Numbered from the stretch's first letter, positions 1-45,313 are shown. The stretch: DNA of 45,313 nucleotides from Escherichia coli (GCF_003334315.1 NZ_QOWR01000038.1), one strand, 5' to 3'. Numbers and translations: made by a program. Notes: generated by a model not told the origin, from the letters alone.

Positions 1-81
1 AAGTCGCTGTCGTTCTCAAAATCGGTGGAGCTGCATGACAAAGTCATCGGGCATTATCTGAACATAAAACACTATCAATAA
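1..81 (+). CDS. insB: IS1 transposase InsB, C-terminal fragment (partial at window edge)
   Basis: Frame 1 reads [26 protein letters not shown] with stop TAA at 79-81. This is identical to the C-terminus of the 125-aa ORF at 44876-45253. Confidence 0.85.
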   Translation, partial: KSLSFSKSVELHDKVIGHYLNIKHYQ

Positions 82-96
82 GTTGGAGTCATTACC
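1..96 (+). mobile_element. IS1 right end (3' part of insB plus terminal inverted repeat), cut by the window edge
   Basis: Ends with ...caataagttggagtcattacc, the complement of the IS1 terminal repeat GGTAATGACTCCAACTTATTGATAGTG. Positions 1-96 are the exact reverse complement of 44861-44956. Confidence 0.9.
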
Positions 97-28694: not shown

Positions 28695-28725
28695 TCCCTC
28701 ACGCCGGGGCTTCATCGCCCCGGCA

Positions 28726-28925
28726 CTACGAATTGATATGTTCCTTGCTGTAACGCCGTTTCCACGCTGCTGGCGTTAAACCGGTGTGTTTGCGAAAAAT
28801 CTGCCGGAAAAAGCCAACGTCATTAAACCGTATTGCATGGAGCAGGCCGACAACGTCGAGTCACTGCATAACCTGTTGCTGCCCGCCGATGCGCCATTTA
28901 CGACATTTGAAGGCAAGGGATTGTT
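28726..28925 (-). pseudogene. AraC-family regulator remnant (C-terminal HTH only, interrupted by an in-frame stop)
   Basis: The minus strand reads ...KWRIGGQQQVMQ*LDVVGLLHAIRFNDVGFFRQIFRKHTGLTPAAWKRRYSKEHINS*, which includes a typical second AraC helix-turn-helix. There is no intact ORF of 60 aa or more, and the upstream extent is uncertain. Confidence 0.55.
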
Positions 28926-29040
28926 CAGCCATAAGATCCTGATTCAGACGCCAGGTTCCCGGTATGAACAGAGCAATCCAGAGCAACAACCTTTGTGGCA
29001 TTACGACGGAGCACCAGCCGCACCAACATCCACCGGTGAA

Positions 29041-29904: not shown

Positions 29905-30879
29905 ATGACAAAATTACAACTTAAGTACCGGGAGTTAAAAATTATCTCGGTAATCGCTGCCAGTGAAAATATCAGCCATGCCGCGACTGTACTTGGCATC
30001 GCACAGGCCAACGTCAGCAAATATCTTGCTGATTTTGAATCAAAAGTGGGTTTAAAAGTCTTTGACCGAACCACCCGGCAGCTGATGCTCACACCTTTTG
30101 GTACCGCGCTGTTACCGTACATCAACGACATGCTGGACAGAAACGAGCAGCTTAATAATTTTATTGCAGATTATAAGCATGAGAAACGTGGTCGGGTCAC
30201 CATCTACGCCCCAACCGGCATAATTACCTATTTATCCAAACATGTAATCGATAAAATTAAAGATATCGGTGATATCACCTTATCGCTAAAAACCTGCAAT
30301 CTTGAGCGTAATGCCTTTTATGAAGGCGTCGAATTTCCTGATGATTGTGATGTTTTAATCAGCTACGCTCCACCAAAAGATGAATCGCTGGTTGCCAGTT
30401 TTATTACCCAATATGCCGTAACCGCTTATGCCAGCCAGCGCTATCTTGAGAAACATCCCATTAGCCGTCCTGACGAACTCGAACATCACTCCTGTATTTT
30501 GATCGACTCGATGATGATCGACGACGCGAATATCTGGCGCTTCAACGTCGCCGGGAGTAAAGAGGTGCGGGATTATCGCGTGAAGGGAAATTACGTTTGC
30601 GACAACACGCAATCTGCGCTGGAGCTGGCACGAAATCACCTGGGGATTGTGTTTGCGCCAGACAAAAGTGTGCAGAGCGACCTGCAAGACGGCACGCTGG
30701 TGCCCTGCTTTCAGCAACCCTATGAATGGTGGCTGGATCTGGTGGCTATCTTCCGTAAACGGGAATACCAGCCCTGGCGGGTCCAGTATGTGCTGGATGA
30801 AATGCTGCGTGAAATTCGCCACCAGCTTGCTCAGTCGCAGCAACTGCGGCCTGAACAAGCGGCGGAAAGCGAAGATTAA
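29905..30879 (+). CDS. yiaU: LysR-family transcriptional regulator
   Basis: 324 aa with an N-terminal LysR HTH (ISHAATVLGIAQANVSKYLADFESKVGLKVFDRTTRQLMLTPFG). Divergent from yiaT. Confidence 0.88.
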   Translation: MTKLQLKYRELKIISVIAASENISHAATVLGIAQANVSKYLADFESKVGLKVFDRTTRQLMLTPFGTALLPYINDMLDRNEQLNNFIADYKHEKRGRVTIYAPTGIITYLSKHVIDKIKDIGDITLSLKTCNLERNAFYEGVEFPDDCDVLISYAPPKDESLVASFITQYAVTAYASQRYLEKHPISRPDELEHHSCILIDSMMIDDANIWRFNVAGSKEVRDYRVKGNYVCDNTQSALELARNHLGIVFAPDKSVQSDLQDGTLVPCFQQPYEWWLDLVAIFRKREYQPWRVQYVLDEMLREIRHQLAQSQQLRPEQAAESED

Positions 30880-30901: not shown

Positions 30902-32227
30902 CCAGGGAAAATTCATGAACATGCCCGTATTTACAGGCTTCGTAGTGTAGCAGGTTCTCAAATTTTGAACTTTATGAGTTAGCGCTATCACACAACAATC
31001 AATTATCCGATGATCGATTTGTAGATCATTTTCAGTGTTTTCTAATACCTCCATAGACAAATTGGAGGTCCAACGATGAGTAACCAGCACCCATTTATGC
31101 ATTTCGATGCCATCCCAGATTATCGCCAACAAGGTAAAGTCGAGCACAAGTTAACTGATATCATTTTGTTAACAATTTGCGCGGTGCTTTCCGGTCAAGA
31201 TGACTGGAAAGCTATCCATCTTTACGGCACTAGATGGTTAGATTTTCTCAAACGCTTTGGTGATTTTAGTCATGGTGTTCCCTCTGCCATTACCATTGCA
31301 AGAGTGATGGGAATGATTAGCGCGACACGCTTACAAAAGTGTTTTATCGAATGGATGAAATCCTGCTGTGAACTGACGGACGGTGAAGTGATCGCCATAG
31401 ACGGTAAAACCGTGCGTGGCTCTTATGATGATTCCCGTGGGCTTGGTGCTATCCATATGGTTAATGCGTTTGCGACAGAGAATGGCGTGTGCCTTGGACA
31501 ACATAAAGTTTACGAGAAGTCCAATGAGATAACCGCTATCCCTGAGTTGCTTCAACTGCTTGATATATCGGGTTGTTTAGTCACAATTGATGCGATGGGA
31601 TGCCAAAAGAAAATCGCGCAAAAGATCCTTGAAAAAAACGCTGATTACTTGCTGGCCGTGAAAGGAAATCAAGGCCGACTTGAGCAAGCTTTTGATAACT
31701 ATTTTGATATGAGCATGCTGCAAAAACATGATGGTGATTCTTACAGTACCCAAGAAAAATCGCGAGGCAGACAGGAAACACGACTGGCTTTAGTGAATGA
31801 AGATTTAAGTGTTTTGGGCGATCTTGAGTTTGATTGGCCAGGGCTAAAAACGATGGGAATTGTGGTATCGATTAGACAAGAATCAGCAGTGGCCCAAGAG
31901 TCAGAAGTAACGGTGCGATATTATATTAGTTCGAAAGCGCTCAGTGCTAAAGAATTGTTAAATGCTTCACGCTCGCACTGGTTAGTCGAGTCGATGCATT
32001 GGATGTTGGATACTGCATTTGGTGAAGATGCTTGCCGTAAACGAGCGGAAGAACGAGCAGAGAATTTCGCAAGGATCAGACAGATGTGTTTAAACATGCT
32101 AAAAAGTGAAACGACACTAAAAGCGAGTATTAAACACAAAAGAGCGATGTGCGCGATGGATCCGGAGTACCTTTTGAAGGTTCTGGGAAGCCTTTATTTA
32201 CGGGAATGTTCATGATTTTTCCGTGGG
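30902..32227 (+). mobile_element. Complete ISAs1-family insertion sequence (H-repeat type)
   Basis: Imperfect terminal inverted repeats: ccagggaaaattcatgaacatgcccg (30902-30927) against the complement of cgggaatgttcatgatttttccgtggg (32201-32227), about 23/27 identical. They enclose one intact 379-aa transposase gene. The ~1.33-kb size fits the family. Confidence 0.78.
31076..32215 (+). CDS. ISAs1-family (H-repeat-associated) DDE transposase
   Basis: 379 aa, MSNQHPFMHFDAIPDYRQQGKVEHKLTDIILLTICAVLSGQDDW...AIDGKTVRGS...TIDAMGCQKKIA. Recognised as the H-rpt/YhhI-like ISAs1 transposase family. No frameshift or internal stop. Confidence 0.9.
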   Translation: MSNQHPFMHFDAIPDYRQQGKVEHKLTDIILLTICAVLSGQDDWKAIHLYGTRWLDFLKRFGDFSHGVPSAITIARVMGMISATRLQKCFIEWMKSCCELTDGEVIAIDGKTVRGSYDDSRGLGAIHMVNAFATENGVCLGQHKVYEKSNEITAIPELLQLLDISGCLVTIDAMGCQKKIAQKILEKNADYLLAVKGNQGRLEQAFDNYFDMSMLQKHDGDSYSTQEKSRGRQETRLALVNEDLSVLGDLEFDWPGLKTMGIVVSIRQESAVAQESEVTVRYYISSKALSAKELLNASRSHWLVESMHWMLDTAFGEDACRKRAEERAENFARIRQMCLNMLKSETTLKASIKHKRAMCAMDPEYLLKVLGSLYLRECS

Positions 32228-32307
32228 AACGAGGATTAATTAAACTATTATCTTACTTAACTCTGCACACGGACTCAGGAGTAAGGACTTCTTCCGATAA
32301 AGAAAAA

Positions 32308-33729
32308 CTAGCCTAAAGAAACTATTTTTCCTAAAATATCAACAACATATTTTTTTGCGATAGCTTCATCTGACGATTCCGCATAGCAACGTAATTCCGG
32401 GGCATTACCTGATGGTCGCAAATGAAAAATGTCACCATTTGAAAGGCAGAATCGCGCGCCATCTGTTTGATCGATATGAGTACAACTTACTGAATCGATT
32501 CCCATTTTTTCCAAGAATTGTGCAGGAGCAGCGATTGCTCCGTCGATGATTTGACGGCTCGTTTCTGAGGGGAAATTTTTAATTCGGTCAGACCAGGTAA
32601 AACGCCGAGGCAATTTCTTTATCAATTGCGAAATTTCCCCTTTACTAGAAGCAACTAGCAGCATCAGTGCCGGTAAAACAGCATCGCGGGTGGGTAGAGA
32701 CGCTAAAGTTTTATTGTTAACTTGTAGATCAGATGCTAGCAAAAAACCGCCATTGGCCTCAAAGCCAGCGACTGCATTATATTTTTCAATTAGACTCTCA
32801 AAGCCTGCGATAACATACGGTGACCCAATTTTTGTTCTTTTAACTAATTCAAACTTCTGTGAGCATTCTATCGCAGTATTACAGCTTACCGGAACTGCCA
32901 GAGCGTTAATATTTAATTCTGCCGCAGCCAATAAACCAAGAATATCGCCCCGTAACCATTCCCCATTTTCATCTGAAACAAGCGGGCGATCACCATCACC
33001 ATCAGTTGAAAAAATAGCATCAAGGTTAAACTCAGCTGACCAACTCTTAGCACGCGCCCGATCTTCATCGCTTACAGCCTCAGTATCGATAGGCACAAAT
33101 TCATCGCTTCGGCCAAAAGAAATAACTTCCGCACCCAACGCACGGAATAATGGAGCGTACAAGTCGCGCCCAGCGCTTGAGTGCTCATAAATTCCCAAAC
33201 GCTTACCATCCAGTATTTTATTTTCAAATAATGAAACGTAGCGTGAAATATAAGCTTCAGCTCCGGCTGTATTTAATTGTAACTCAGGGAGTTCAAAGAC
33301 CCTTTCAAATTCATGTTTGCAACTTACAATAGCCGACTCATCGTTTTTAGAAATTTCACCATCCGGTCGATAAAACTTCAACCCATTACGATCAAATGGT
33401 ATATGGCTTCCAGTTACCATAATACACGGTATATTTTTCTGCATTGAATAATAGGCTAAAGCAGGCGTTGGTATGACACCATGGTACTCCACATCAAATC
33501 CCATTTTCTTAATCGCGTAAGCACAAGCCTGAGCGATTTCATAACTGCTTGGGCGATTATCGATGGCAAGCGCTACGGTTTTGAAATCGAAATGATTTCT
33601 AATGACTGCTAGAAAACTATGCGTAAACGCTGCACAAACATCATGTGTAAAATCAACAACTAGACCGCGAGCACCGCTAGTACCGAAAGCGATACGACTC
33701 TCACTGATAACTGTATTAGTACTTAACAT
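32308..33729 (-). CDS. manB: Phosphomannomutase (alpha-D-phosphohexomutase superfamily), divergent subtype
   Basis: Catalytic loop [11 protein letters not shown], metal loop [11 protein letters not shown], sugar loop GFEANGG and phosphate loop [10 protein letters not shown]. Last gene of the GDP-mannose/fucose module. The ATG at 33729 is preferred; a GTG at 33738 (track start) is possible. Confidence 0.85.
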
Positions 33730-33734
33730 GTTGT

Positions 33735-34481
33735 TCACTTTTTAATAAATTGTGGAAGTTTTGATAGATTTTTATATATCAAAGCTAATGGCCATATAAT
33801 TCCGTTAGTCTTCATAATACGTATATCTTCCATTGATTTATTTATCATGGATGATAAGGAGCGGTTACTAATGCCACCGACTCGCATTTTCACCAATACT
33901 TTAGGTAAATAGGAAATATTTATTCGTTTTTTTAAAATGTAACGCAGTAGAGAATCATAATCGGCAGAAATGCGATAGTCGAGAGAAAAATCACCAAACT
34001 TTTGATAACAGGAACGTTTCATATAAAATGAGGGATGAGGCGGCATCCACCCTAGTTGCATTTTTGTACGGTTATACGCTCCGCTTTTCCAGAGTCTGAC
34101 TCGCTTAGTCGTATCATTTTGAGATACATATTCTAAATCGCCATAGACGGCATCACAATGAGTCTTAGCAAATGTCTCCGCTATATCTGCAATAACATCA
34201 TCATAGGCAAGCAAATCGTCAGAATGCAAGAACCCAATAATATCACCCGTCGCTGCATTTATACCTTTATTAAGGGCATCATAAATTCCCTTATCTGCCT
34301 CACAAATGATTTTACTTACTTTCGTGCAATTTTGATTTATAAGTTCTATGGTGGCGTCTTTCGATGCACCGTCTACGATAATATATTCAATATCTGGATA
34401 GGATTGCCTCTCTAACGAAATTAATGTATCTCGTAAAGTGCTCTCGCTATTGTATGTAGCCGTAATGATTGAAATACGCAT
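33735..34481 (-). CDS. Family 2 glycosyltransferase (WcaE-like, about 248 aa)
   Basis: N-terminal GT-A signature [40 protein letters not shown] ... HSDD (DxD-like). Its start overlaps the manC stop by 1 nt (TGATG). Confidence 0.85.
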
Positions 34482-35896
34482 CAGTATCCTACTCCAGATG
34501 ATGATACACGAACAACATCATCCTCTTGCAAATAGACTCCAGACCTAACCTCTATAATTTCCAAGGGAATTTTACCGGGGTTCTCGATTGCATGAGGTAT
34601 ACCAACAGGTATATAAGTCGATTCATTCTCGGCGACCAAATAGGTTTTATCATCAAGATGAACTTTAGCTGTTCCAGAAACAACTACCCAATGTTCAGTA
34701 CGATGATAATGAATTTGCTTAGCGGTGATATGACCAGGTTGTACAATAACTTGTTTAACCTGATAACGTTCTCCTTCAGCTATAGTATCATGGCTTCCCC
34801 ATGGACGAAAAATTTCACGATGCTGCAAATATTCTGAACGTTGATTCTTTTTAAGTTGAGCAACAATATTTTTGACTTGTTGAACTTTGTCTTTATGCGC
34901 GACAAGTACCGCATCTTTTGTTTCAACAACAACGAGATCTTTAATTCCTACAGCACCAATAAGACGATGTTGTGAATAAAGATAGCTATCAGTGGTGTCT
35001 TCAACAAGTACATCACCGCGAATAGCGTTACCACTTTGATCTTTTAGACTAATTTCCCATAAGGCTGACCATGAACCGACATCACTCCATTGAGCGCTGA
35101 GTGGCATCACAACAGCTTCTGCTGTTTTCTCCATTACGGCATAATCAATTGATTCTTCAGGACAACAAGTAAAAGAAGCGCCATCAATACGGATAAAATC
35201 CAAATCCTGCATCGAGTTGTCTAATGCATTTTGACATGCGGTTAAAATATCGGGCCTGAATTTTTTTAATTCATTAATAAATACAGATGCCTTGAACATA
35301 AACATGCCACTATTCCAAAGATAACCACCATCGGTTAAATATTCTTTAGCGAGTTCAAGTTTCGGTTTTTCCACGAAGGCTGCAACTTTATAGCCATCCT
35401 GGCCAGTATTACTCAATACTTCTCCTGTTTTGATATAACCGTATCCTGTTTCTGGGGAAGTCGGGACAATACCAAAAGTAACTAACTTCCCTTTTTCAGC
35501 AAATTCTTTCGCTGCAAGCATAGCCTGTGTAAAATGATCTTGATCCTGAATCTCGTGATCGGCAGCCAAAACGAGAAGAATAGGATCCTCCCCAGAGGTT
35601 TGTGCCTGAAGAGCTGCAAGCGCAACCGCCGGAGCAGTATTACGCCCTTCAGGTTCAAGCAAAATACCACTGTGCTGTAAACCTTCTTTACGCAACTGTT
35701 CAGCGACAATGAAACGATGCGATTCATTGCAAATAACCAGTGCAGGATCATGTTCAACATCATCAAGTCGACGCAACGTTTCCTGCAACATTGTTAAACG
35801 GCTATTTAAAGAAAGGAATTGCTTCGGATACAATGTGCGTGAAAGAGGCCACAGTCGGGTCCCTGAGCCACCGGCCATTACGACGGGAAGGAGCAT
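34481..35896 (-). CDS. manC: Mannose-1-phosphate guanylyltransferase (bifunctional type II PMI/GMP architecture)
   Basis: 471 aa with N-terminal [20 protein letters not shown] (nucleotidyltransferase G-loop) and a C-terminal cupin ([19 protein letters not shown]). Confidence 0.93.
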
Positions 35897-35901
35897 ATCT
35901 A

Positions 35902-36363
35902 TTACCTTGAAAGAAAATAATTTTTGGTGTATTGATGAACCAATGTATTGGTGAGCAATGTTTCTACATCAAACCACTGATAAGCACTATGCTGTTTTGT
36001 TGGAAAGGTAAGCTTTTCATTTTGAAGGTGAATTTCATATCCATGCACTACATAATGCGTGGTAAAATCTTCACCTGAGAAATTATCATCGTAAAAATGC
36101 TCAAATATTCCCATGAAGAGCGCTTTCTTTATAGGAATATCGACACCCAATTCATCTAATGTGATTCGCTTAAATGCTTTTTCGAAAGACTCATCTTTGT
36201 AAATTCGTCCCCCAGGCACAAACCAAAAATTTTGTGCAGGACGATTTTGGCGCTGCCCAAGCAACGCCATTCCTTCACCATTTCTTATGATGAGATCTAT
36301 CGAGATTAGGGGAGTATTTTCAACAATTGATTTAAATAATTGCTGTTCTAATCTCTTATTCAT
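35902..36363 (-). CDS. gmm: GDP-mannose mannosyl hydrolase (Nudix)
   Basis: Nudix-like box [23 protein letters not shown]. The ATG at 36363 ([10 protein letters not shown]) lies 2 nt after the fcl stop; the track ORF starts 13 codons further upstream, inside fcl. Confidence 0.85.
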
Positions 36364-36365
36364 GA

Positions 36366-37331
36366 TTAGCCTCGAAATGAATTTAGATTTGCAAGATACC
36401 ATTCATAGGTTAATGCCAAACCATCATGGAGGGTATAGTTATAACTCCATCCTAGATTCTTTAAACGTGTGACATCCATAAGTTTACGCGGGGTACCATC
36501 AGGTTTAGTTTTATCAAACACTACTTGACCTTTATAACCAACTACAGCAGCCATCGTCTCAGCCATTTCACGAATAGTGCAATCGATACCAGTACCCACA
36601 TTGATGTGCGAGAGCATTGGTTGAGTATTTTCTTGATATATTTTATCTTCTAGTTCCATAACATGAATGGATGCGGCAGCCATATCATCGACATATAAAA
36701 ACTCACGCATGGGTGTACCAGAACCCCATACAACAACCTCAGAAGCATCTGACTCTTTAGCTTCATGGAAACGGCGCATGAGGGCAGGAATAACATGCGA
36801 ATTTTCCGGATGAAAATTATCATTCATACCATAAAGATTTGTGGGCATAACACTACGGTAATCCCTACCGTACTGGCGATTATATGATTCGCATAATTTA
36901 ATTCCGGCTATCTTCGCAATTGCATATGGCTCATTTGTCTGTTCTAAAACCCCAGTCAGTAAAGCTGATTCTTTCATTGGTTGCTCAGCATATTTTGGAT
37001 AGATACAACTTGAGCCTAAAAAAAGAAGCTTCTGTATACCAGCCATATGTGCTGAATGAATGATATTGCTCTCAATCATTAAGTTCTGGTAAATAAATTC
37101 GGCAGGATAGGTGTTATTTGCATGAATCCCCCCAACCTTAGCCGCCGCTAAATAGACTTGGTCGATATTATCATTTTCGAAAAATGTCTGAACATCAATC
37201 TGCTTCGTAAGATCTAATTCAGTGTGTGTTTTAGTGATTAACTCTACATCATCACGTAAGCTTAGCTCTCGACAAATTGCAGAGCCGACCATCCCCCGAT
37301 GTCCAGCAACATAGATCCGTTTTTTGCTCAT
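36366..37331 (-). CDS. fcl: GDP-L-fucose synthase (GDP-4-keto-6-deoxymannose 3,5-epimerase/4-reductase)
   Basis: 321 aa, the same length as E. coli Fcl. N-terminal Rossmann motif [15 protein letters not shown]; SDR catalytic region with YAIAK. Confidence 0.93.
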
Positions 37332-37333
37332 TG

Positions 37334-38452
37334 TTAACGCTCCAGGGATACTGCTACGTCGTACCCATGGCTTTTAAGGAGCGCATGTTGTTTTGCTTTA
37401 GCCAAATCTCCAGCGACCATTTCAGCACACAACTCTTCAACGGTGATTTCAGGCACCCAGCCTAGGACTTTTTTCGCCTTAGCAGGGTCGCCAAGTAGCG
37501 TTTCAACTTCTGCAGGGCGGAAGTAACGAGGGTCAACGCGTACAATAACATCACCTACGTTTACACCAACAGCGCAATCCGAGGTTTTATTAACAACCGT
37601 GGCAATCTCATCAATCCCCGTACCGGTAAACTCAAGTTCCAGGCCAACTTCTTTCGCAGACATACGAACAAATTCACGAACAGATATTTGTTTACCGGTT
37701 GCAATAACGAAATCTTCCGGTTGTTCCTGCTGCAGCATCATCCATTGCATGCGAACATAATCCCTGGCATGACCCCAATCGCGTAACGAATCCATATTCC
37801 CAAGATGCAGACAATTTTCAATGCCTTGCGAAATATTAGCAATCGCACGAGTAATTTTACGTGTTACAAACGTCTCACCACGACGCGGTGATTCATGGTT
37901 AAACAGAATGCCATTGCAAGCGTACATGCCATAAGATTCACGGTAGTTAATAGTGATCCAATAAGCATAAAGCTTCGCTACTGCGTACGGCGAACGCGGA
38001 TAGAAAGGGGTAGTTTCTTTCTGAGGAATTTCCTGGACTAAGCCGTATAATTCAGATGTTGAAGCTTGGTAAAAGCGTGTCTTCTTTTCCAACCCACAAA
38101 TACGAATAGCTTCGAGCAGACGTAAAGTTCCCATTGCATCGACATCTGCAGTATATTCAGGGGATTCAAATGAAACGGCAACATGTGATTGAGCTCCAAG
38201 ATTGTAAACCTCATCCGGACTGATATCTTTAATTAACCGGACTAAGTTTGAGGTATCAGTAAGATCACCATAATGGAGAGTAAAGTTATTATTGCTGCTA
38301 TATGGTGGCTGATATATATGATCGACTCTTTCAGTATTTAAGGAAGAAGCACGGCGTTTTATGCCGTGAACCTGGTAACCTTTCTCCAATAAAAATTCTG
38401 CAAGATAAGAACCATCTTGGCCTGTTACACCAGTAATTAGAGCAACTTTCAT
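37334..38452 (-). CDS. gmd: GDP-mannose 4,6-dehydratase
   Basis: [34 protein letters not shown]... from the ATG at 38452; the track starts at a GTG 3 codons upstream. [10 protein letters not shown] catalytic motif. Confidence 0.94.
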
Positions 38453-38453
38453 A

Positions 38454-39527
38454 TCATTCACCTTTAATTATTTCAGTTATTTTACCAATATAGATTTCTG
38501 GTTTATATTTATCCAGAGCCAACTTTCTGTTTAAATTAGACTTTTCAACTAAATCGGTAGCGGAATATACTACCTTGATTGCTTCCTTAATTGCATATGC
38601 TGATTTCTTAGTAATTAACAGACCATTATCTTCAGAAATCATATCTTCGAGATATTTATGCCTAGATGTTATTATCAAACAACCATATAACATAGCTTCT
38701 ATTATCGATATAGGTTGGGCTTCAGAACGATAAAAAGTGGGCAAAATAAAAACATCGGCATCAATGAGCACTTCTTTTTTAGCTTCACCAGATACTGTCC
38801 CAACATAACTTATGAAATCACTTTTCTTTATTCTATCAAAAAATATTTTTTCAGCTGCTTGTTGGTTTAGAAACTCATCACTTAAAATCTCACCTGCAAT
38901 TACTAAAGATAGATCATAACCCTCTTTCACCAGAGATTTTACAGCGCGTATTAAATGGAATACACCTTTCGAATACATGACATTTGAAAGATATAATATT
39001 TTCAATCCTTTCAACCGTTCCTGTTTATAAAATGTTGACACTGGTCCAGAATAACAATTAGTGACGACACTAACTTTCATTTTGTTATAAATTGCATATT
39101 GTTCTACCATTCTTGGTAAAAGAACAATAGAATGATCAATCAAATTATACACAAAATCTATACCACATCTAAATAAACTACGCTTTGATGCTCTAAATGA
39201 AATAAAATCGGAACCATGCAAATGGTTTATAATTTTCGCACCGAACATTTTACCCAAAAGAATAATATATGCATCGCGTAAAAAACCAAAAGTGGTCCGA
39301 CTGGTAGTAATATATATTTTTTTCTCTTTATTTATATTAGCAATTAAATAAAGAGGATATGCTATAATAATTTTAAGTAATTTTAGCAAAACACAAAAAA
39401 AACCATTTCCTTTTGATTGATAATCAATAAGTATTTTACTACCTTCATAATTCTTATAGATTAGATTAAATGCTACTGATTGCCCTGTTATTCTACCAGA
39501 GGACGGGCCAACAAAAAAAGTCAACAT
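38454..39527 (-). CDS. GT-B fold glycosyltransferase (GT4/GT1-like)
   Basis: 357 aa with a C-terminal EX7E motif ([21 protein letters not shown]). Very AT-rich. The stop lies 1 nt before the gmd ATG. Confidence 0.8.
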
Positions 39528-39556
39528 TGTATTAACACCATAAGTTATTTATATAC

Positions 39557-40633
39557 TCATCCAACACTTAGTATTGTTTTATATGGGTAAATGCCTAACC
39601 CACCCTCATTACTTGAAGGGTTCTTAAAAATCATTAATGTAAAATTAATCATCAATACTATAATCAGCATCGTTCGGAGTATCGTCTTGTTTTTTTCGCT
39701 CAACTGCCCAATATATAACAGCGTAATCACAGGAACAAACATAAACAAATCGACTAAACGATTAAAAATATGTATTTGGACAGAAAGCATTACAGCGATT
39801 ACGTAACAATAATTAAGGTATGATATAATATTAATTTCATCCCTGTTACAATTATTGTTTTTAAAACATACGGTGCATAAAAGATATATAACTGAAGGAA
39901 TTATCTTTAATATAACGCCTAATCCAGACCCCATTTCTGTTGGTTGGTTAAACATCGTAAAATCTGAATATACGCCATATTTTGTATTTCTAAATAATGG
40001 GTTACCTAAAATCAACTCTGCGACATTAACTTTTACGACGAGAAAATAAAAACAAACAAGGATAATCAAGCCTAAATAGGGGTTTAAATTAATCCTTTTT
40101 AATAAAATAAATGGTAGTATGATTAAAGCAGAAAGATGAAAGCAAGAACCTATCCCAATATATAATAAAAACTGTTTTTTATTCCCCTCAATTAAAGATA
40201 ATATCGCACACAGTACAAAGGCGACAGCTGCTGTTTGTCTTATCAATGAAAAAGAAGGGAGATACATAACACATATAACGCCAAAGACGCCAAGGAACCC
40301 TCTCATTTTTTTGGTTGAAAATAATGCCGTCAGTGTTATTAATGACATTATCATAAACATCAGTTGAGGTTCTTTTGATATATAATTACTTAGAGTTACG
40401 ACTAAATAAAATCCAACTTCAACATTAGAATTAACAAAGCTATCATGAATAATGTCATTATAAAGTCTAACATAATTCACATAGTCGGTTCCAATGTCAG
40501 TTCGTAAAGCGGATATAACCAAAAGAATTATAAATGTAGATGCAAAAAAGAAGCTATTTTGAACTCTAAATATTGAATTTCGCGGTAAAGAATTCAATAC
40601 TAAGCATGCAGCTAAGATTATTAAATAAAACAC
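39557..40633 (-). CDS. wzy: O-antigen polymerase (EpsG-like polytopic membrane protein)
   Basis: 358 aa with about 10-11 hydrophobic segments and no recognisable enzymatic motif. It sits inside the O-antigen cluster as the second large membrane protein besides wzx. GTG start with an AAGGAAA RBS. Confidence 0.7.
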   Translation of the reverse strand: MFYLIILAACLVLNSLPRNSIFRVQNSFFFASTFIILLVISALRTDIGTDYVNYVRLYNDIIHDSFVNSNVEVGFYLVVTLSNYISKEPQLMFMIMSLITLTALFSTKKMRGFLGVFGVICVMYLPSFSLIRQTAAVAFVLCAILSLIEGNKKQFLLYIGIGSCFHLSALIILPFILLKRINLNPYLGLIILVCFYFLVVKVNVAELILGNPLFRNTKYGVYSDFTMFNQPTEMGSGLGVILKIIPSVIYLLCTVCFKNNNCNRDEINIISYLNYCYVIAVMLSVQIHIFNRLVDLFMFVPVITLLYIGQLSEKNKTILRTMLIIVLMINFTLMIFKNPSSNEGGLGIYPYKTILSVG

Positions 40634-40644
40634 ACAAATTTCCT

Positions 40645-41637
40645 TTAATCAAGTTCATATGATGATTTATTTGGGTAAATCGATGCAAATGCAACATGTA
40701 TTTTATTCTTAGCAACAACAAAGTTTTTAATATCATCATCATCATTTATTACCAATATATTGCTTTTTTTGTTTTCAATCACACTTGTGATCTCGTCAAT
40801 ATTTCCATCAGTAACTGAATAATATTTAGCATATTTATATAAATTAAATGGTTTATAATTCCCAGTACATAATTGCCAATATCTAAAAAGGTATTGATTT
40901 ACATCGTCATTAGTTCTAAATTTCTGCTTTGCAGTCTTGACAAGAATATCTTTTTTTTCCAGCCAAACATCATCAAATGTGCTTTTTAAGTATGGTTGAG
41001 GAAGATGATGATCAAAAAAACCTGTAATACGAGGCCAAGGCATTAATAATAAACTTCGTAAAGATTTTTCAGGATATTTATAAGAAAACACACCCGATAT
41101 ATTTTTCTTAACAACTTCTTTTTTGTTAAAGGATTCGTTAATTTCCTTTATATCGTTCATAATGATATGAGATATATTTCCACAATCAAGAGCATTAAAT
41201 GCAAATGTATCACATGGTATTGTTTTTTTAAAAAAATAGGATTCCGGTATATTCTTTAATGTAAAAAAATCATCATTAAAGTAAATAAATCTCTCTGACA
41301 ACCCCTCAATTTTATGTAAGAATATCTCAATAACATGAGAACTAAAAAGAGGTAAATATTCCGATGGAATGTAATCAGAATGGTTAACAACCTTCAATTT
41401 TTTATTTTTAATATTTAGCCATTCGGGTATGTGTCCACATGTTATAAAATAGATAGTTCTAACCCATGGCATATTTTCTTCTATGCCTCTAAACCAGTAA
41501 CGCATCAAATCCCAATCACGAAAGCGAGACGTCGCTGAATGAGTATCACTGCAAGCAGGTTTATTTTTATAATATTCCTTTTGCCAATCAGGATCGTTAG
41601 AATCAACCCATGGTATAACAATATCTACAGGTTCCAC
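40645..41637 (-). CDS. Stealth-family hexose-1-phosphate transferase (glycosyl-phosphotransferase)
   Basis: All four Stealth conserved regions are visible. CR1: VDIVIPWVDSNDPDW. CR2: MRYWFRGIEENMPWVRTIYFITCGHIPEWL. CR3: FSSHVIEIFLHKIEGLSERFIYFNDDFF. CR4-like: LVINDDDD. GTG start with AAGGAAA 8 nt upstream. Confidence 0.82.
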   Translation of the reverse strand: MEPVDIVIPWVDSNDPDWQKEYYKNKPACSDTHSATSRFRDWDLMRYWFRGIEENMPWVRTIYFITCGHIPEWLNIKNKKLKVVNHSDYIPSEYLPLFSSHVIEIFLHKIEGLSERFIYFNDDFFTLKNIPESYFFKKTIPCDTFAFNALDCGNISHIIMNDIKEINESFNKKEVVKKNISGVFSYKYPEKSLRSLLLMPWPRITGFFDHHLPQPYLKSTFDDVWLEKKDILVKTAKQKFRTNDDVNQYLFRYWQLCTGNYKPFNLYKYAKYYSVTDGNIDEITSVIENKKSNILVINDDDDIKNFVVAKNKIHVAFASIYPNKSSYELD

Positions 41638-41639
41638 TT

Positions 41640-42383
41640 TTATTTCCTTAAACCTAGTTCTCTTAAGAGCTTGGCAAATTTTAATTTTGATATAATATAG
41701 AGCAGATATATTCTATTTAATAATGGAGCATTTCTTTGCTTCGCAATTTTTAATTTTTCTTGAAATAACGCAATTCTTTGTTTTGCAGAAACCCCATTCC
41801 ATTTAAAAATGGAAATATACTGTGGTACAGGATAAAATATAGCACCAGCGTTCAATAAATCTATGCTTAATAAATGGTCAGCACATATTTTATAATTTAA
41901 ATCATATTTATAATGTTTAAGTAAATTGAAGCGATACAGCGTTGATTGATGGCATGCTGGCATATAAATCCATTTTTGATTTATAGACTTAACCTTTTCA
42001 TACTTAAATACTGAACCAGTATCAATAATTACACCGCCACCAATTATATCGGGACTATTCTCGTCATTAACCTGGCTGATCACTTCATTTAATACTTCAT
42101 CTTGATAAAAAACATCACCCGCATTTAAAAAAATAACCCAATCACCAGTTACATATTGTAGTGATTTATTCATCGCATCATATATACCATTATCTTTTTC
42201 ACTTACGACTGTGGTTATTTTATCTTTAAATTTTTCTAGTACATCTAAAGTCCCATCTGTTGATGCACCATCAATAACAATATACTCAATTTCCTTGTAA
42301 GTTTGCTTCAAAACACTATTTATTGTAACTTCAAGATCATTTGCAGCATTGTAAACGACTGTCACTATAGAAATTTTAAACAT
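41640..42383 (-). CDS. Family 2 glycosyltransferase (WcaE-like, about 247 aa), paralogue of 33735-34481
   Basis: ISIVTVVYNAANDLEVTINSVLKQTYKEIEYIVIDGASTDGT ... NAGD. The N-terminal ~100 aa align with the other GT2. The start overlaps the wzx stop by 8 nt. Confidence 0.85.
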   Translation of the reverse strand: MFKISIVTVVYNAANDLEVTINSVLKQTYKEIEYIVIDGASTDGTLDVLEKFKDKITTVVSEKDNGIYDAMNKSLQYVTGDWVIFLNAGDVFYQDEVLNEVISQVNDENSPDIIGGGVIIDTGSVFKYEKVKSINQKWIYMPACHQSTLYRFNLLKHYKYDLNYKICADHLLSIDLLNAGAIFYPVPQYISIFKWNGVSAKQRIALFQEKLKIAKQRNAPLLNRIYLLYIISKLKFAKLLRELGLRK

Positions 42384-43647
42384 TCGTTCCCTTACAAAAT
42401 ATCGGTAATTTATTTTTAATTATCACATACATCATCAATTGATTAACAACGAGTTCAGTAATAAGTACTGTAATAGCAGCACCAAGTGCGCCATAAGAAT
42501 ACACCGCTGGGAATATACATATCATTGCGATAACACCACCAGTTATTACGATTTTGCTAAACATTTTAGCCATATTCAGAACAAGTAACGTCTGATAACC
42601 GAAAACATTACTTACAGCAATAATAAAGGGCATGCCTGATAAAATTTTCATAATGACTATTGATGAATGATAATCGCTCCCGTATAAAAATAATATCAAT
42701 TCTTTACTGTATATGAACAATAATAAGCTAATAATAAATGCAATACCACCTTGTACTTTGAGCAATTTTCTAATCACATCAAAAGCATGCTCCCTATTGT
42801 TTTTCATAAGAGCATTTATTCTTGGATATAATGCCTGAGACACAGGCCCAATTAATCCTTGTATAGCTAATCGTATTTTATCTGCTGCTGTGAAATATCC
42901 AACAATGGTTGGATTGGTAAAAATACCTAAAATCACGGTAATACTTCCAGTATAAATATTAATCGCGGCAGTTGAGATAAAAATATGCCATGCAGAAGCT
43001 AATTCTAATTTCATTTCAGGCCATGTTGGTGAATACCATTTAATCCATTTCTTTTCTATAACTATTGCTAATGCGATGCACCCAGACAGGATAAAAGTTA
43101 GTCCATTTATTAGCGCCACCAACCAAACATCTTCAGGCGAATGAATTAATAAAAAAATAGCGGGCACTGCAAGAATTTTTGAGGTTATGCTTGAAATAGC
43201 TACTTTAGCCATTTCTTCCTTACCTTGAAATAACCAGACTGGAAATAGCATATTTCCTACCACTGCTGAAAAGGCAATGATTAAAACATATTGATATTCA
43301 CCAGTAAATACATGGTCAGCGATAGTCCAACATCCGGAGAAAATAAAAGCACACACAATCAAAATTAACTTGCATGCCATAACATTCCAATACGTTTTGC
43401 TTACAAGTTCAACATCGTCTCGAATAATTGATATTTTTTTTGTTATAGAAAGATTAAAGCCAAAGTCAACTATCAGAATTGAATACTGTATTATTGCAAG
43501 GGTATATCCATAGATTCCGTAACTGTATGGCCCCAGCACCTTTACAAGGTAGGGTAAAGTTAACAATGGTATTAGGTATCCAACCCCCTGAATACTTAAT
43601 AGCGAAAATATGTTTATTAGTACTTTCTTATTCATCCACTGACTCAT
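42376..43647 (-). CDS. wzx: O-unit flippase (MOP/polysaccharide transporter family)
   Basis: 423 aa with about 12 hydrophobic segments. First gene after JUMPstart. The start may instead be the second ATG at 43635. Confidence 0.8.
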   Translation of the reverse strand: MSQWMNKKVLINIFSLLSIQGVGYLIPLLTLPYLVKVLGPYSYGIYGYTLAIIQYSILIVDFGFNLSITKKISIIRDDVELVSKTYWNVMACKLILIVCAFIFSGCWTIADHVFTGEYQYVLIIAFSAVVGNMLFPVWLFQGKEEMAKVAISSITSKILAVPAIFLLIHSPEDVWLVALINGLTFILSGCIALAIVIEKKWIKWYSPTWPEMKLELASAWHIFISTAAINIYTGSITVILGIFTNPTIVGYFTAADKIRLAIQGLIGPVSQALYPRINALMKNNREHAFDVIRKLLKVQGGIAFIISLLLFIYSKELILFLYGSDYHSSIVIMKILSGMPFIIAVSNVFGYQTLLVLNMAKMFSKIVITGGVIAMICIFPAVYSYGALGAAITVLITELVVNQLMMYVIIKNKLPIFCKGTNV

Positions 43648-43652
43648 TTATT

Positions 43653-43691
43653 CACGCTACCGCCCCTGGCTCAACAGCTACCAGTGCACTG
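43653..43691 (-). promoter_or_regulatory. 39-bp JUMPstart element containing the ops site (RfaH loading)
   Basis: The minus strand reads CAGTGCACTGGTAGCTGTTGAGCCAGGGGCGGTAGCGTG. The ops core GGCGGTAG is the complement of 43657-43664. Confidence 0.88.
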
Positions 43692-43961
43692 CACAAAATT
43701 CAGTATGTCGTGGACCAGCCCCCACAAACCTTCACGTTTGCATCGAATCTCGCCCACCAATTTAGCCCACTATTTTGGGCGCAATCCCTGTGTAAGACAA
43801 GGAGAAATCCGGCATTTTTTATCAAAAAACACCGCGCAATCACTAATTTTAGTTGTTGTTTTTAAAAGCAAAAACGGCAGCTGCTGTGAAATGAGAGTTC
43901 CTCAACCACAATCATCTGCCGTTCTGTTACTCACCAACATTCCGTGTTGTTGCGTAGTGTC
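43692..43961 (-). promoter_or_regulatory. galF-wzx intergenic region, expected to hold the O-antigen operon promoter
   Basis: A 270-bp non-coding region upstream of JUMPstart. By analogy with other E. coli O-antigen loci the operon promoter lies here. The -10/-35 elements were not assigned. Confidence 0.4.
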
Positions 43962-44855
43962 TTATTCTGAAAGCAGTTTCTCAATCCCTTTCCGGAACTT
44001 CGCCCCTTCTTTCAGGTTGCGCAGCCCATACTGGACAAACGCCTGCATGTAACCCATTTTCTTACCGCAGTCGTAGCTGTCGCCGCTCATCAGCATCGCG
44101 TCAACGGACTGTTTCTTCGCCAGCTCGGCGATAGCATCCGTCAACTGAATACGTCCCCAGGCACCCGGCGCGGTTTTTTCCAGTTCGGCCCAGATGTCGG
44201 CGGAAAGCACATAGCGCCCTACTGCCATCAGGTCGGAATCCAGCGTTTGCGGTTGGTCTGGTTTTTCGATGAACTCAACGATACGGCTCACTTTACCTTC
44301 TACGGTCAGCGGCTCTTTAGTCTGAATAACCGAGTACTCAGAAAGATCGCCAGGCATACGTTTCGCCAGCACCTGGCTGCGGCCTGTTTCGTTATAACGT
44401 GCCACCATCGCAGCGAGGTTATAACGCAGTGGGTCAGCGGATGCGCCATCGAGAATGATATCAGGCAGAACAACCACAAACGGGTTATCGCCAACGATCG
44501 GACGCGCGCACAGAATGGAGTGGCCCAGGCCCAGCGGCTGCGCCTGTCGCACGTTCATGATGGTTACGCCCGGCGGGCAAATGGACTGAACTTCCGCCAG
44601 CAGCTGACGCTTAACGCGTTGCTCCAGCAGAGCTTCCAGTTCATAGGAGGTGTCGAAGTGGTTTTCCACGGCATTTTTGGAGGAGTGGGTGACCAGGACG
44701 ATTTCTTTGATCCCTGCAGCAACAACTTCGTCGACGATGTATTGGATCATCGGCTTGTCAACGATCGGTAGCATCTCTTTAGGAATGGCCTTGGTGGCAG
44801 GGAGCATATGCATGCCCAGCCCGGCTACCGGAATGACTGCTTTCAAATTAACCAT
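43962..44855 (-). CDS. galF: UTP--glucose-1-phosphate uridylyltransferase paralogue GalF
   Basis: 297 aa, [43 protein letters not shown]. Recognised as GalF, at the conventional position upstream of an O-antigen cluster. Core-like GC content. Confidence 0.93.
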
Positions 44856-44860
44856 TATCG

Positions 44861-45313
44861 GGTAATGACTCCAACTTATTGATAGTGTTTTATGTTCAGA
44901 TAATGCCCGATGACTTTGTCATGCAGCTCCACCGATTTTGAGAACGACAGCGACTTCCGTCCCAGCCGTGCCAGGTGCTGCCTCAGATTCAGGTTATGCC
45001 GCTCAATTCGCTGCGTATATCGCTTGCTGATTACGTGCAGCTTTCCCTTCAGGCGGGATTCATACAGCGGCCAGCCATCCGTCATCCATATCACCACGTC
45101 AAAGGGTGACAGCAGGCTCATAAGACGCCCCAGCGTCGCCATAGTGCGTTCACCGAATACGTGCGCAACAACCGTCTTCCGGAGACTGTCATACGCGTAA
45201 AACAGCCAGCGCTGGCGCGATTTAGCCCCGACATAGCCCCACTGTTCGTCCATTTCCGCGCAGACGATGACGTCACTGCCCGGCTGTATGCGCGAGGTTA
45301 CCGACTGCGGCCT
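44861..45313 (-). mobile_element. IS1 (right-end portion, inverted relative to the copy at 1-96), cut by the window edge
   Basis: Begins GGTAATGACTCCAACTTATTGATAGTGTTTTATGTTCAGATAATGCCCGATGAC, the IS1 terminal repeat and flank, and continues through insB. Confidence 0.93.
44876..45313 (-). CDS. insB: IS1 transposase InsB (partial; N-terminus beyond the window)
   Basis: ...[36 protein letters not shown]...HYLNIKHYQ*. The reading frame stays open to the window end. Confidence 0.9.

Follow-up and report, generated by a model that had tools for sequence, protein, structure and literature searches.

Positions 32308-43647 of a 45,313-nucleotide Escherichia coli contig (GCF_003334315.1, NZ_QOWR01000038.1), the whole of which we refer to as the window, hold a minus-strand gene cluster that we judge, at a probability of about 0.72, to be a complete and apparently functional Wzx/Wzy-dependent O-antigen cluster of E. 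coli origin. Its sequence relationships would make it a distinct member of a family of clusters that includes its distant relative O173, with a Wzy polymerase of its own and an unrelated family-4 glycosyltransferase (GT4), and its gene content predicts a repeat unit containing fucose and a sugar phosphate. On comparison with O173, O84, O168 and O36, none of which it matches, the cluster most likely represents an untyped O-genotype. In the window it is ectopic, lying beside yiaU instead of at galF-gnd, and sequence comparison indicates that a near-identical segment has been caught between copies of the insertion sequence (IS) IS26 on plasmids and has spread to other genera.

Gene content and leader of the cluster

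The interval is bounded exactly by the manB stop codon and the wzx start codon and comprises 11 uninterrupted open reading frames (ORFs), which Pfam assignments order from the galF end as wzx-GT2a-Stealth-wzy-GT4-gmd-fcl-gmm-manC-GT2b-manB (Table 1). The genes of the GDP-L-fucose module (manB, manC, gmd and fcl) are all present as full-length ORFs and gmm is likewise intact, as are the genes for exactly three glycosyltransferases (two of family 2, GT2a and GT2b, and one GT4), one Stealth phosphotransferase, wzx and wzy; this is the inventory that had been read from the sequence alone before our analysis (the sequence-only reading). Pfam scans found no initiating transferase gene of the WbaP or WecA type in the cluster, in line with the same reading's suggestion that synthesis starts from WecA. 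Its description of the two GT2 proteins as WcaE-like held in part: WcaE is the best NCBIfam match of both, at 127 bits for GT2a and 73 bits for GT2b, but these scores lie far below the 369-bit equivalog cut-off, so that 'WcaE-like' is a fair description, judged by these matches, and does not amount to membership of WcaE. By homology, then, the locus encodes a GDP-L-fucose pathway with all its genes intact, three glycosyltransferases (two inverting, one retaining), a Stealth enzyme, a flippase, a polymerase and an RfaH-type leader, from which we infer sugar identities, linkages, unit size and expression. The G+C content of the cluster is 29-44%, against about 50% in its flanks.

The Stealth assignment is carried by a strong match to conserved region CR2 (136.7 bits, cut-off 39.4), with CR1 (26.4 bits) and CR3 (21.1 bits) detectable just under their cut-offs and CR4 undetected in the Pfam scan. 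Among solved structures in the PDB, the protein matches by sequence the GNPTAB catalytic domain (2e-26), Drosophila GNPT (2.6e-23) and CpsY (8j2n; 3.5e-22). It resembles the established Stealth enzymes, namely human GNPTAB (GlcNAc-1-phosphotransferase), bacterial capsule polymerases and CpsY, and differs from them in being a short, single-domain protein of 330 amino acids (aa) set in an O-unit assembly line, where it presumably adds one phosphosugar per repeat without polymerising.

Upstream of wzx lies an element of 39 nt which, by what is established for O-antigen loci in E. coli, we take to be JUMPstart with ops; it runs from 43691 to 43653 as GGCGGTAGCGTG, the element as read directly being CAGTGCACTGGTAGCTGTTGAGCCAGGGGCGGTAGCGTG. 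Beyond it, galF and the intergenic region are 99.2% identical to the chromosomal galF region of E. coli NCTC9699 and to six other genomes. A scan for promoters and terminators returned counts at chance level and was uninformative. NCTC9699 is an O28ac/O42 strain, and its likeness to the window at 99.2% covers the galF allele and the galF-wzx spacer, the clusters themselves being unrelated; its O-antigen is also phosphate-containing, and it has a CDP-glycerol glycerophosphotransferase gene.

The same features bear on whether the product, instead of being an O-antigen linked to lipopolysaccharide, might form an O-antigen capsule, as a capsule-like or free exopolysaccharide. Stealth enzymes are, as established knowledge has it, best known from capsule synthesis, and a native O-antigen may coexist with an ectopic or plasmid-borne copy. 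The galF flank, JUMPstart, wzx and wzy, together with the absence of wza-wzb-wzc or kps export genes, nonetheless form the signature of an O-antigen locus, and homologous clusters sit at galF-gnd, adjoining wzz, which makes a capsule an improbable product of this locus.

Table 1. Features of the window and the intervals of it that are retained between IS26 copies elsewhere (positions counted from the first nucleotide of the window).
Feature	Position	Strand	Evidence or remark
yiaU, LysR regulator, last backbone gene	29905-30879	+	Pfam LysR
Complete ISAs1-family element, transposase 31076-32215	30904-32227	+	DDE_Tnp_1 and DDE_Tnp_1_assoc; terminal inverted repeats read
manB, phosphomannomutase, non-CpsG type	32308-33738	-	four PGM/PMM domains
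GT2b, inverting family-2 glycosyltransferase, between manC and manB	33735-34481	-	Glycos_transf_2
manC	34481-35896	-	NTP_transferase and MannoseP_isomer
gmm, GDP-mannose mannosyl hydrolase	35902-36402	-	NUDIX; same name in RefSeq plasmid copy
fcl, GDP-L-fucose synthase	36366-37331	-	Epimerase and GDP_Man_Dehyd; RefSeq name fcl
gmd, GDP-mannose 4,6-dehydratase	37334-38461	-	GDP_Man_Dehyd, 510 bits
GT4, retaining glycosyltransferase, 357 aa	38454-39527	-	Glycos_transf_1
wzy, O-antigen polymerase	39557-40633	-	EpsG, 152 bits, full length
Stealth-family hexose-1-phosphate transferase, 330 aa	40645-41637	-	Stealth_CR2
GT2a, inverting WcaE-like family-2 glycosyltransferase, adjoins wzx	41640-42383	-	Glycos_transf_2
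wzx, O-unit flippase	42376-43647	-	Polysacc_synt, 176 bits
JUMPstart with ops (RfaH-dependent antitermination signal), 39 nt, upstream of wzx	43653-43691	-	sequence read
galF, native upstream flank of E. coli O-antigen loci	43962-44855	-	galF equivalog, 671 bits, above cut-off
IS1, partial, at contig end, 5 bp upstream of galF start codon	44861-45313		DDE_Tnp_IS1; terminal repeat starts at 44861
Interval kept between IS26 cut points, p3575	31909-44330		
Interval kept between IS26 cut points, S. dysenteriae 1012, L011 and L012	31865-44330		
Interval kept between IS26 cut points, Citrobacter and Klebsiella	32099-44860		with ISEc36 and a wcaM fragment

Relation to O173 and other clusters, and the predicted O-unit

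The sequence-only reading had raised the possibility that the cluster is that of E. coli O173. As the O173 reference we used the cluster of E. coli SE11 (NC_011415.1 2355500-2366979), a valid choice because the O173 wzy primer sites (Wang 2010; primer sequences, like those for O84 wzx and O168 wzx, taken from the supplement of PMC7403468) occur there exactly, 605 bp apart for an expected amplicon of 606 bp. With up to 4 mismatches tolerated, the window has a site for neither of these primers. The two clusters have an identical inventory of 11 functions (wzx, wzy, Stealth, two GT2, one GT4, gmd, fcl, gmm, manC and manB), with wzx and a GT2 at the galF end of both, and their Wzx (60% identity), GT2a (48%, against the GT2 in the same position) and Stealth (46%) proteins are homologous, as are Gmd (82%) and Fcl (74%). 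They differ in gene order, since Stealth-wzy-GT2-GT4 come after manB in O173, and in location, O173 being at galF-gnd. Wzy is 34% and GT2b 29-34% identical between the two; ManB is of another type, at 23% identity to the CpsG-type ManB of O173; and the GT4 proteins are unrelated, with an alignment that is partial only (27% identity, E = 0.006). The names given by RefSeq and PGAP differ too, the SE11 flippase and polymerase being called 'O173 family' and those of plasmid copies of the window cluster just 'flippase' and 'EpsG family protein'. Identity with O173 is therefore refuted at the sequence level, and we leave it next to no probability. SE11 itself, which we take to have been published as O152:H28, carries a cluster annotated as 'O173 family' with exact primer sites; an ISEc1 element lies between its galF and wzx.

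When 5,426 complete E. coli genomes were searched with DNA of the wzx-GT2 region at low stringency, loci that RefSeq assigns to the 'O173 family', that of SE11 among them, were its sole relatives on chromosomes, at 64% DNA identity; the window cluster itself was on the chromosome of none of the 5,426. Among 5.8 billion proteins, the nearest relatives of Wzy beyond its own cluster were from Buttiauxella agrestis (48% identity) and Scandinavium manionii (44%), followed by others at about 42%, and E. coli relatives reached at most 36%; a scan of species-representative genomes with Wzy found no relative. In B. agrestis (L016), a Scandinavium manionii-like isolate (L022) and the isolate of DRR294244 (L023), the 11-gene order of the window recurs between galF and gnd, with identities of 50-66% for Wzx, 48-63% for Stealth, 46-53% for GT2a, 67-76% for GT2b and 42-48% for Wzy; in B. 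agrestis, Stealth reaches 63% and GT2a 53%. These clusters differ from that of the window in belonging to other genera, in occupying the native locus with its gnd flank and in involving no IS elements. Their GT4 proteins, of 329-334 aa, are also unrelated to the 357-aa GT4 of the window, all other proteins being homologous. Against the GT4 proteins of O173, O36, Buttiauxella, Scandinavium and the DRR294244 isolate, the window GT4 shows local identities of just 22-27% (E >= 0.004), and it appears on these comparisons to be the only gene of the window cluster without a close counterpart in related clusters. We conclude, from sequence relationships, that the cluster belongs with O173 in a small family of O-antigen clusters that carry a Stealth gene and a fucose pathway, and that the variable components within this family appear to be Wzy and the retaining GT4.

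Alignment to O173 and other fucose-containing clusters, the check that the sequence-only reading had called for, gave no cluster-level match to O173 or O36 and did return the 3' module of O36. In O36 (strain 06-00048, L015), to which this module of the window comes closest, gmd-fcl-gmm-manC-GT2-manB stand in the same order as in the window at 69-88% protein identity (GT2b 82%, ManC 87%, ManB 74%; Fcl is 74-85% identical across O173 and O36). For the four proteins of the GDP-L-fucose module, identity to their O36 homologues is 74-88%. O36 differs in having rmlBDAC, in lacking a Stealth gene and in its unrelated wzx, wzy and GT4; window Wzx and Wzy gave no BLASTP match to O36 Wzx and Wzy. Identity with O36 was accordingly rejected, the likeness being confined to the gmd-to-manB module. 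O84, whose unit has beta-L-Fuc-1-P (L-fucose, L-Fuc), and O168/S. dysenteriae 4 were rejected as well, since the window has no site for the wzx primers of either when up to 4 mismatches are tolerated. PGAP names the genes of O173, O36 and O28ac/O42 by serogroup, but not those of the window cluster, and no serogroup-specific NCBIfam family matched its Wzx, Wzy or Stealth protein.

It is unlikely, though far from negligible, that the cluster is a rare one that has already been typed (with an OgN or OX genotype, as a provisional serotype of Shigella, or as a serogroup known to map away from galF-gnd) and hence is no new serotype locus. Isolates labelled S. dysenteriae carry cluster genes, and an identical Wzy is indexed in 189 blocks of an assembly collection, so typing laboratories have probably met the cluster. 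Set against this are the missing O173, O84 and O168 primer sites, the unrelated wzx and wzy of O36, the lack of a chromosomal copy in the complete E. coli genomes and the lack of an O-family name from PGAP, while the copy in S. dysenteriae 1012, being on a p3575-type backbone and disrupted in manC, is not the serotype locus of that strain. To our knowledge, only O84 and O173 contain L-Fuc among the E. coli serogroups with phosphate bridges, which also speaks against an earlier typing. A putative new O-serotype locus is compatible with every test made on the sequence. A sugar-phosphate-sugar bridge is listed for just six serogroups of E. coli, O173 among them (PMC9912281).

In the pathway that we propose, chromosomal WecA would prime undecaprenyl phosphate with GlcNAc-1-P (N-acetylglucosamine, GlcNAc), and ManB, ManC, Gmd and Fcl would supply GDP-L-fucose and possibly also GDP-mannose. 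The two inverting GT2 proteins and the retaining GT4 would add three sugars, at least one of them L-Fuc and the others drawn from housekeeping UDP-sugar pools, and the Stealth enzyme would move a hexose-1-phosphate from a nucleotide sugar to create a phosphodiester bridge. The unit would then be flipped by Wzx, polymerised by Wzy and finished by host Wzz and WaaL ligation, with transcription proceeding through the retained galF-wzx intergenic region and its JUMPstart/ops. The predicted composition (GlcNAc, three sugars including L-Fuc, and one hexose-1-phosphate), at which the sequence-only reading had arrived from the inventory, can be upheld as a prediction because O173 has the same inventory and the Buttiauxella and Scandinavium clusters the same order; by analogy, the five-residue, phosphate-bridged design would be shared with O173, whose unit would be a pentasaccharide of GlcNAc, glucose (Glc), L-Fuc and Glc-1-P. 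Since GT4 is unrelated and Wzy divergent, the polysaccharide is predicted to differ from that of O173 at one alpha-linked residue and at the polymerisation linkage.

Chromosomal site and mobile copies

Positions 1-30903 of the window carry the genes of an ordinary E. coli chromosome (glyS, xyl, malS, the yiaK-sgbE operon, yiaT and yiaU) and match numerous commensal isolates and isolates from animals at 100% identity, and so offer nothing in favour of the enteroinvasive context that the sequence-only reading had proposed; on the cluster's mobility and its position off galF-gnd, that reading was silent. A Shigella chromosome, like the enteroinvasive context, was rejected, given the commensal and animal E. 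coli backbone and given that the S. dysenteriae 1012 copy, with its disrupted manC, is on a p3575-type plasmid backbone. Collinearity with other E. coli stops at 30903, which is 24 bp past the yiaU stop codon and inside the 3' end of yiaV; in a reference strain (L013 3605-4741) yiaU is followed by yiaV-yiaW-aldB, and the rest of yiaV, yiaW and aldB are absent from the contig. A single ISAs1-family element, about 69% identical over just 170 nt to the ISEc1 of SE11, links yiaU and the truncated yiaV to the manB end. At the other side, the IS1 terminus recurs as an identical, inverted 96 nt at window 1-96, so that both contig ends are IS1 termini and the 45-kb contig is an inter-IS1 fragment. No gnd was found within the window, where the cluster is flanked by galF on one side and by the ISAs1 element and yiaU on the other. 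Elsewhere in the backbone, the sgbE-yiaT spacer (28695-29040) contains remnants of an AraC-family regulator and of another pseudogene, according to the annotation of an identical reference sequence.

With a draft contig that has IS1 at both ends, and with another assembly (L018) breaking at the ISAs1 boundary, the yiaU-ISAs1-manB junction could be an artefact of assembly across a repeated IS. The whole yiaU-ISAs1-cluster-galF-IS1 arrangement was, however, assembled independently from run ERR271230 at 100% identity over 14,244 bp, a stretch that includes yiaU, the entire ISAs1 element and the start of IS1, and the ISAs1 element occurs only once in the window; the allele common to the window and ERR271230 recurs in three or more other samples. 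Because of this independent assembly and the further samples, we regard the junction as real and as the mark of a lineage, and an artefact as very improbable.

As to origin, galF, the intergenic region and a wcaM fragment found in Citrobacter plasmids are 99% identical to the native E. coli chromosome, which argues that the cluster arose at an E. coli galF-gnd locus and then moved. A single inversion between the rfb region and yiaV was rejected: yiaU on the plus strand and the cluster on the minus strand keep their relative orientation in K-12, as we take it from the MG1655 map. As one inversion cannot form the yiaU/manB junction with orientation kept, insertion or translocation is the more likely way in which the cluster reached the yiaU site.

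The sole full-length match in complete E. coli genomes was on the plasmid p3575-NDM-5, at 99.9% identity and with IS26 on both sides; PLSDB yielded three more plasmids, two from Citrobacter portucalensis and one from E. coli. IS26-bounded copies also occur on the chromosomes of Klebsiella sp. WP7-S18 (AP022195, AP022189 and AP022201, with two read in AP022195, L004 and L005) and on further plasmid-like contigs, and every context read for the identical Wzy was bounded by IS26 (loci L001 and L003-L012). The copy in the draft assembly of S. dysenteriae 1012 (AAMJ02000017.1, L009) has a flank 100% identical to the p3575-NDM-5 backbone (EcoRII restriction-modification genes, HNH and GGDEF), so the p3575-type plasmid family with the cluster is already present in that assembly. 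A literature search found no paper describing the cluster on plasmids, and the ST167 NDM-5 paper leaves it unmentioned. The mannose/fucose island of Citrobacter KOS1-1 was rejected as a different element.

There are three distinct pairs of IS26 cut points (Table 1), and the promoter/JUMPstart region is kept in all of them. Just the last 129-363 bp of the ISAs1 element are left in the plasmid copies; the C. portucalensis plasmids (L003 4440-5777, and L007) have a wcaM fragment and an IS3-family, ISEc36-like element 22 bp upstream of galF. A common insertion site for IS1 and ISEc36 was rejected, ISEc36 being 17 bp further out in the Citrobacter plasmids. The window copy has no IS26 and ends instead at the ISAs1 element and IS1. 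Over 12.4 kb, it differs from the plasmid copies by two fixed differences, a single-nucleotide polymorphism at 32806 in manB and a 3-bp in-frame indel at 40732-40734 in the Stealth gene, the latter an insertion in the window that makes its protein 330 aa against 329 aa in all plasmid copies examined. Since the ISAs1 element is whole only in the window and the Citrobacter plasmids retain more of the galF side, both forms would descend from a recent common ancestor and neither from the other.

Function, significance and comparison with known systems

Several points weigh against a functional fucose and sugar-phosphate O-antigen cluster and deserve to be set out together. The genes wecA, waaL and wzz and the strain's own galF-gnd locus lie outside the window. 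D-mannose may enter the unit as well as, or besides, L-Fuc, donors not being readable from sequence, and the phosphosugar added by the Stealth enzyme may belong to a side chain instead of forming a bridge within the chain. In the Klebsiella sp. WP7-S18 copies (L004-L006 and L010), extra IS elements sit in wzx and GT2a and the Stealth gene is split, as if the IS26 unit were decaying or being amplified, and in S. dysenteriae 1012 an IS1 replaces most of manC. With several mobile copies disrupted by IS elements, carriage need not mean use.

On such grounds the cluster might be silent passenger DNA, carried along by IS elements and plasmids without making a surface polysaccharide in its present hosts. 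The insertions in wzx, GT2a and Stealth of Klebsiella WP7-S18 and in manC of S. dysenteriae 1012 would fit this, as would one E. coli plasmid copy with truncated GT4 and GT2a products, and at 99.94% identity the copies have had no time yet for selection to show. All 11 genes are nevertheless intact in the window, in at least four more isolates of the window type, in p3575, in the Citrobacter plasmids and in L011 and L012, and every mobile version keeps the promoter/JUMPstart region, so that we think silence rather doubtful and hold to an apparently functional O-antigen cluster. A wider proposal, which we advance tentatively and consider unlikely to hold in full, is that an untyped O-antigen with a phosphodiester and fucose is mobile as a unit: captured by IS26 with its own promoter/JUMPstart on conjugative resistance plasmids, including an NDM-5 plasmid, it would have been seeded in E. 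coli, Shigella, Citrobacter and Klebsiella and stand ectopically in an E. coli lineage, and gain of the plasmid could switch or add a surface antigen. If that were true, serotype conversion and escape from phage or immunity would be co-selected with antibiotics in one step.

For serotyping based on wzx and wzy, strains with the cluster would be called untypable or mixed, and a plasmid copy would confuse serotype calls in Shigella, E. coli and other genera. If expressed, an intact O-antigen cluster on carbapenemase plasmids would open a way for surface antigens to change in step with antibiotic selection. The comparisons also define, across Enterobacterales, a small family of O-antigen clusters with a Stealth gene; as its variable parts are GT4 and Wzy, it offers a clean system for tying linkages to enzymes. 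The cluster would, moreover, add one to the six recognised E. coli O-groups with sugar-phosphate-sugar bridges (PMC9912281).

The closest parallels to its mobility are known plasmid-borne O-antigen loci. These have been described for S. sonnei form I on pINV and the rfp plasmid of S. dysenteriae 1 (PMC8767346) and for the O54 plasmid of Salmonella Borreze (PMC7685785). What sets the present case apart is that IS26 copies on resistance plasmids enclose an entire E. coli-type Wzx/Wzy cluster along with its galF/JUMPstart flank, and that this is so in several genera. In S. sonnei form I, S. dysenteriae 1 rfp and Salmonella O54, as here, O-antigen genes stand off galF-gnd, on plasmids and with IS elements at their borders; the window cluster, in contrast to those three, is also ectopic in a chromosome and has no serotype tied to it.

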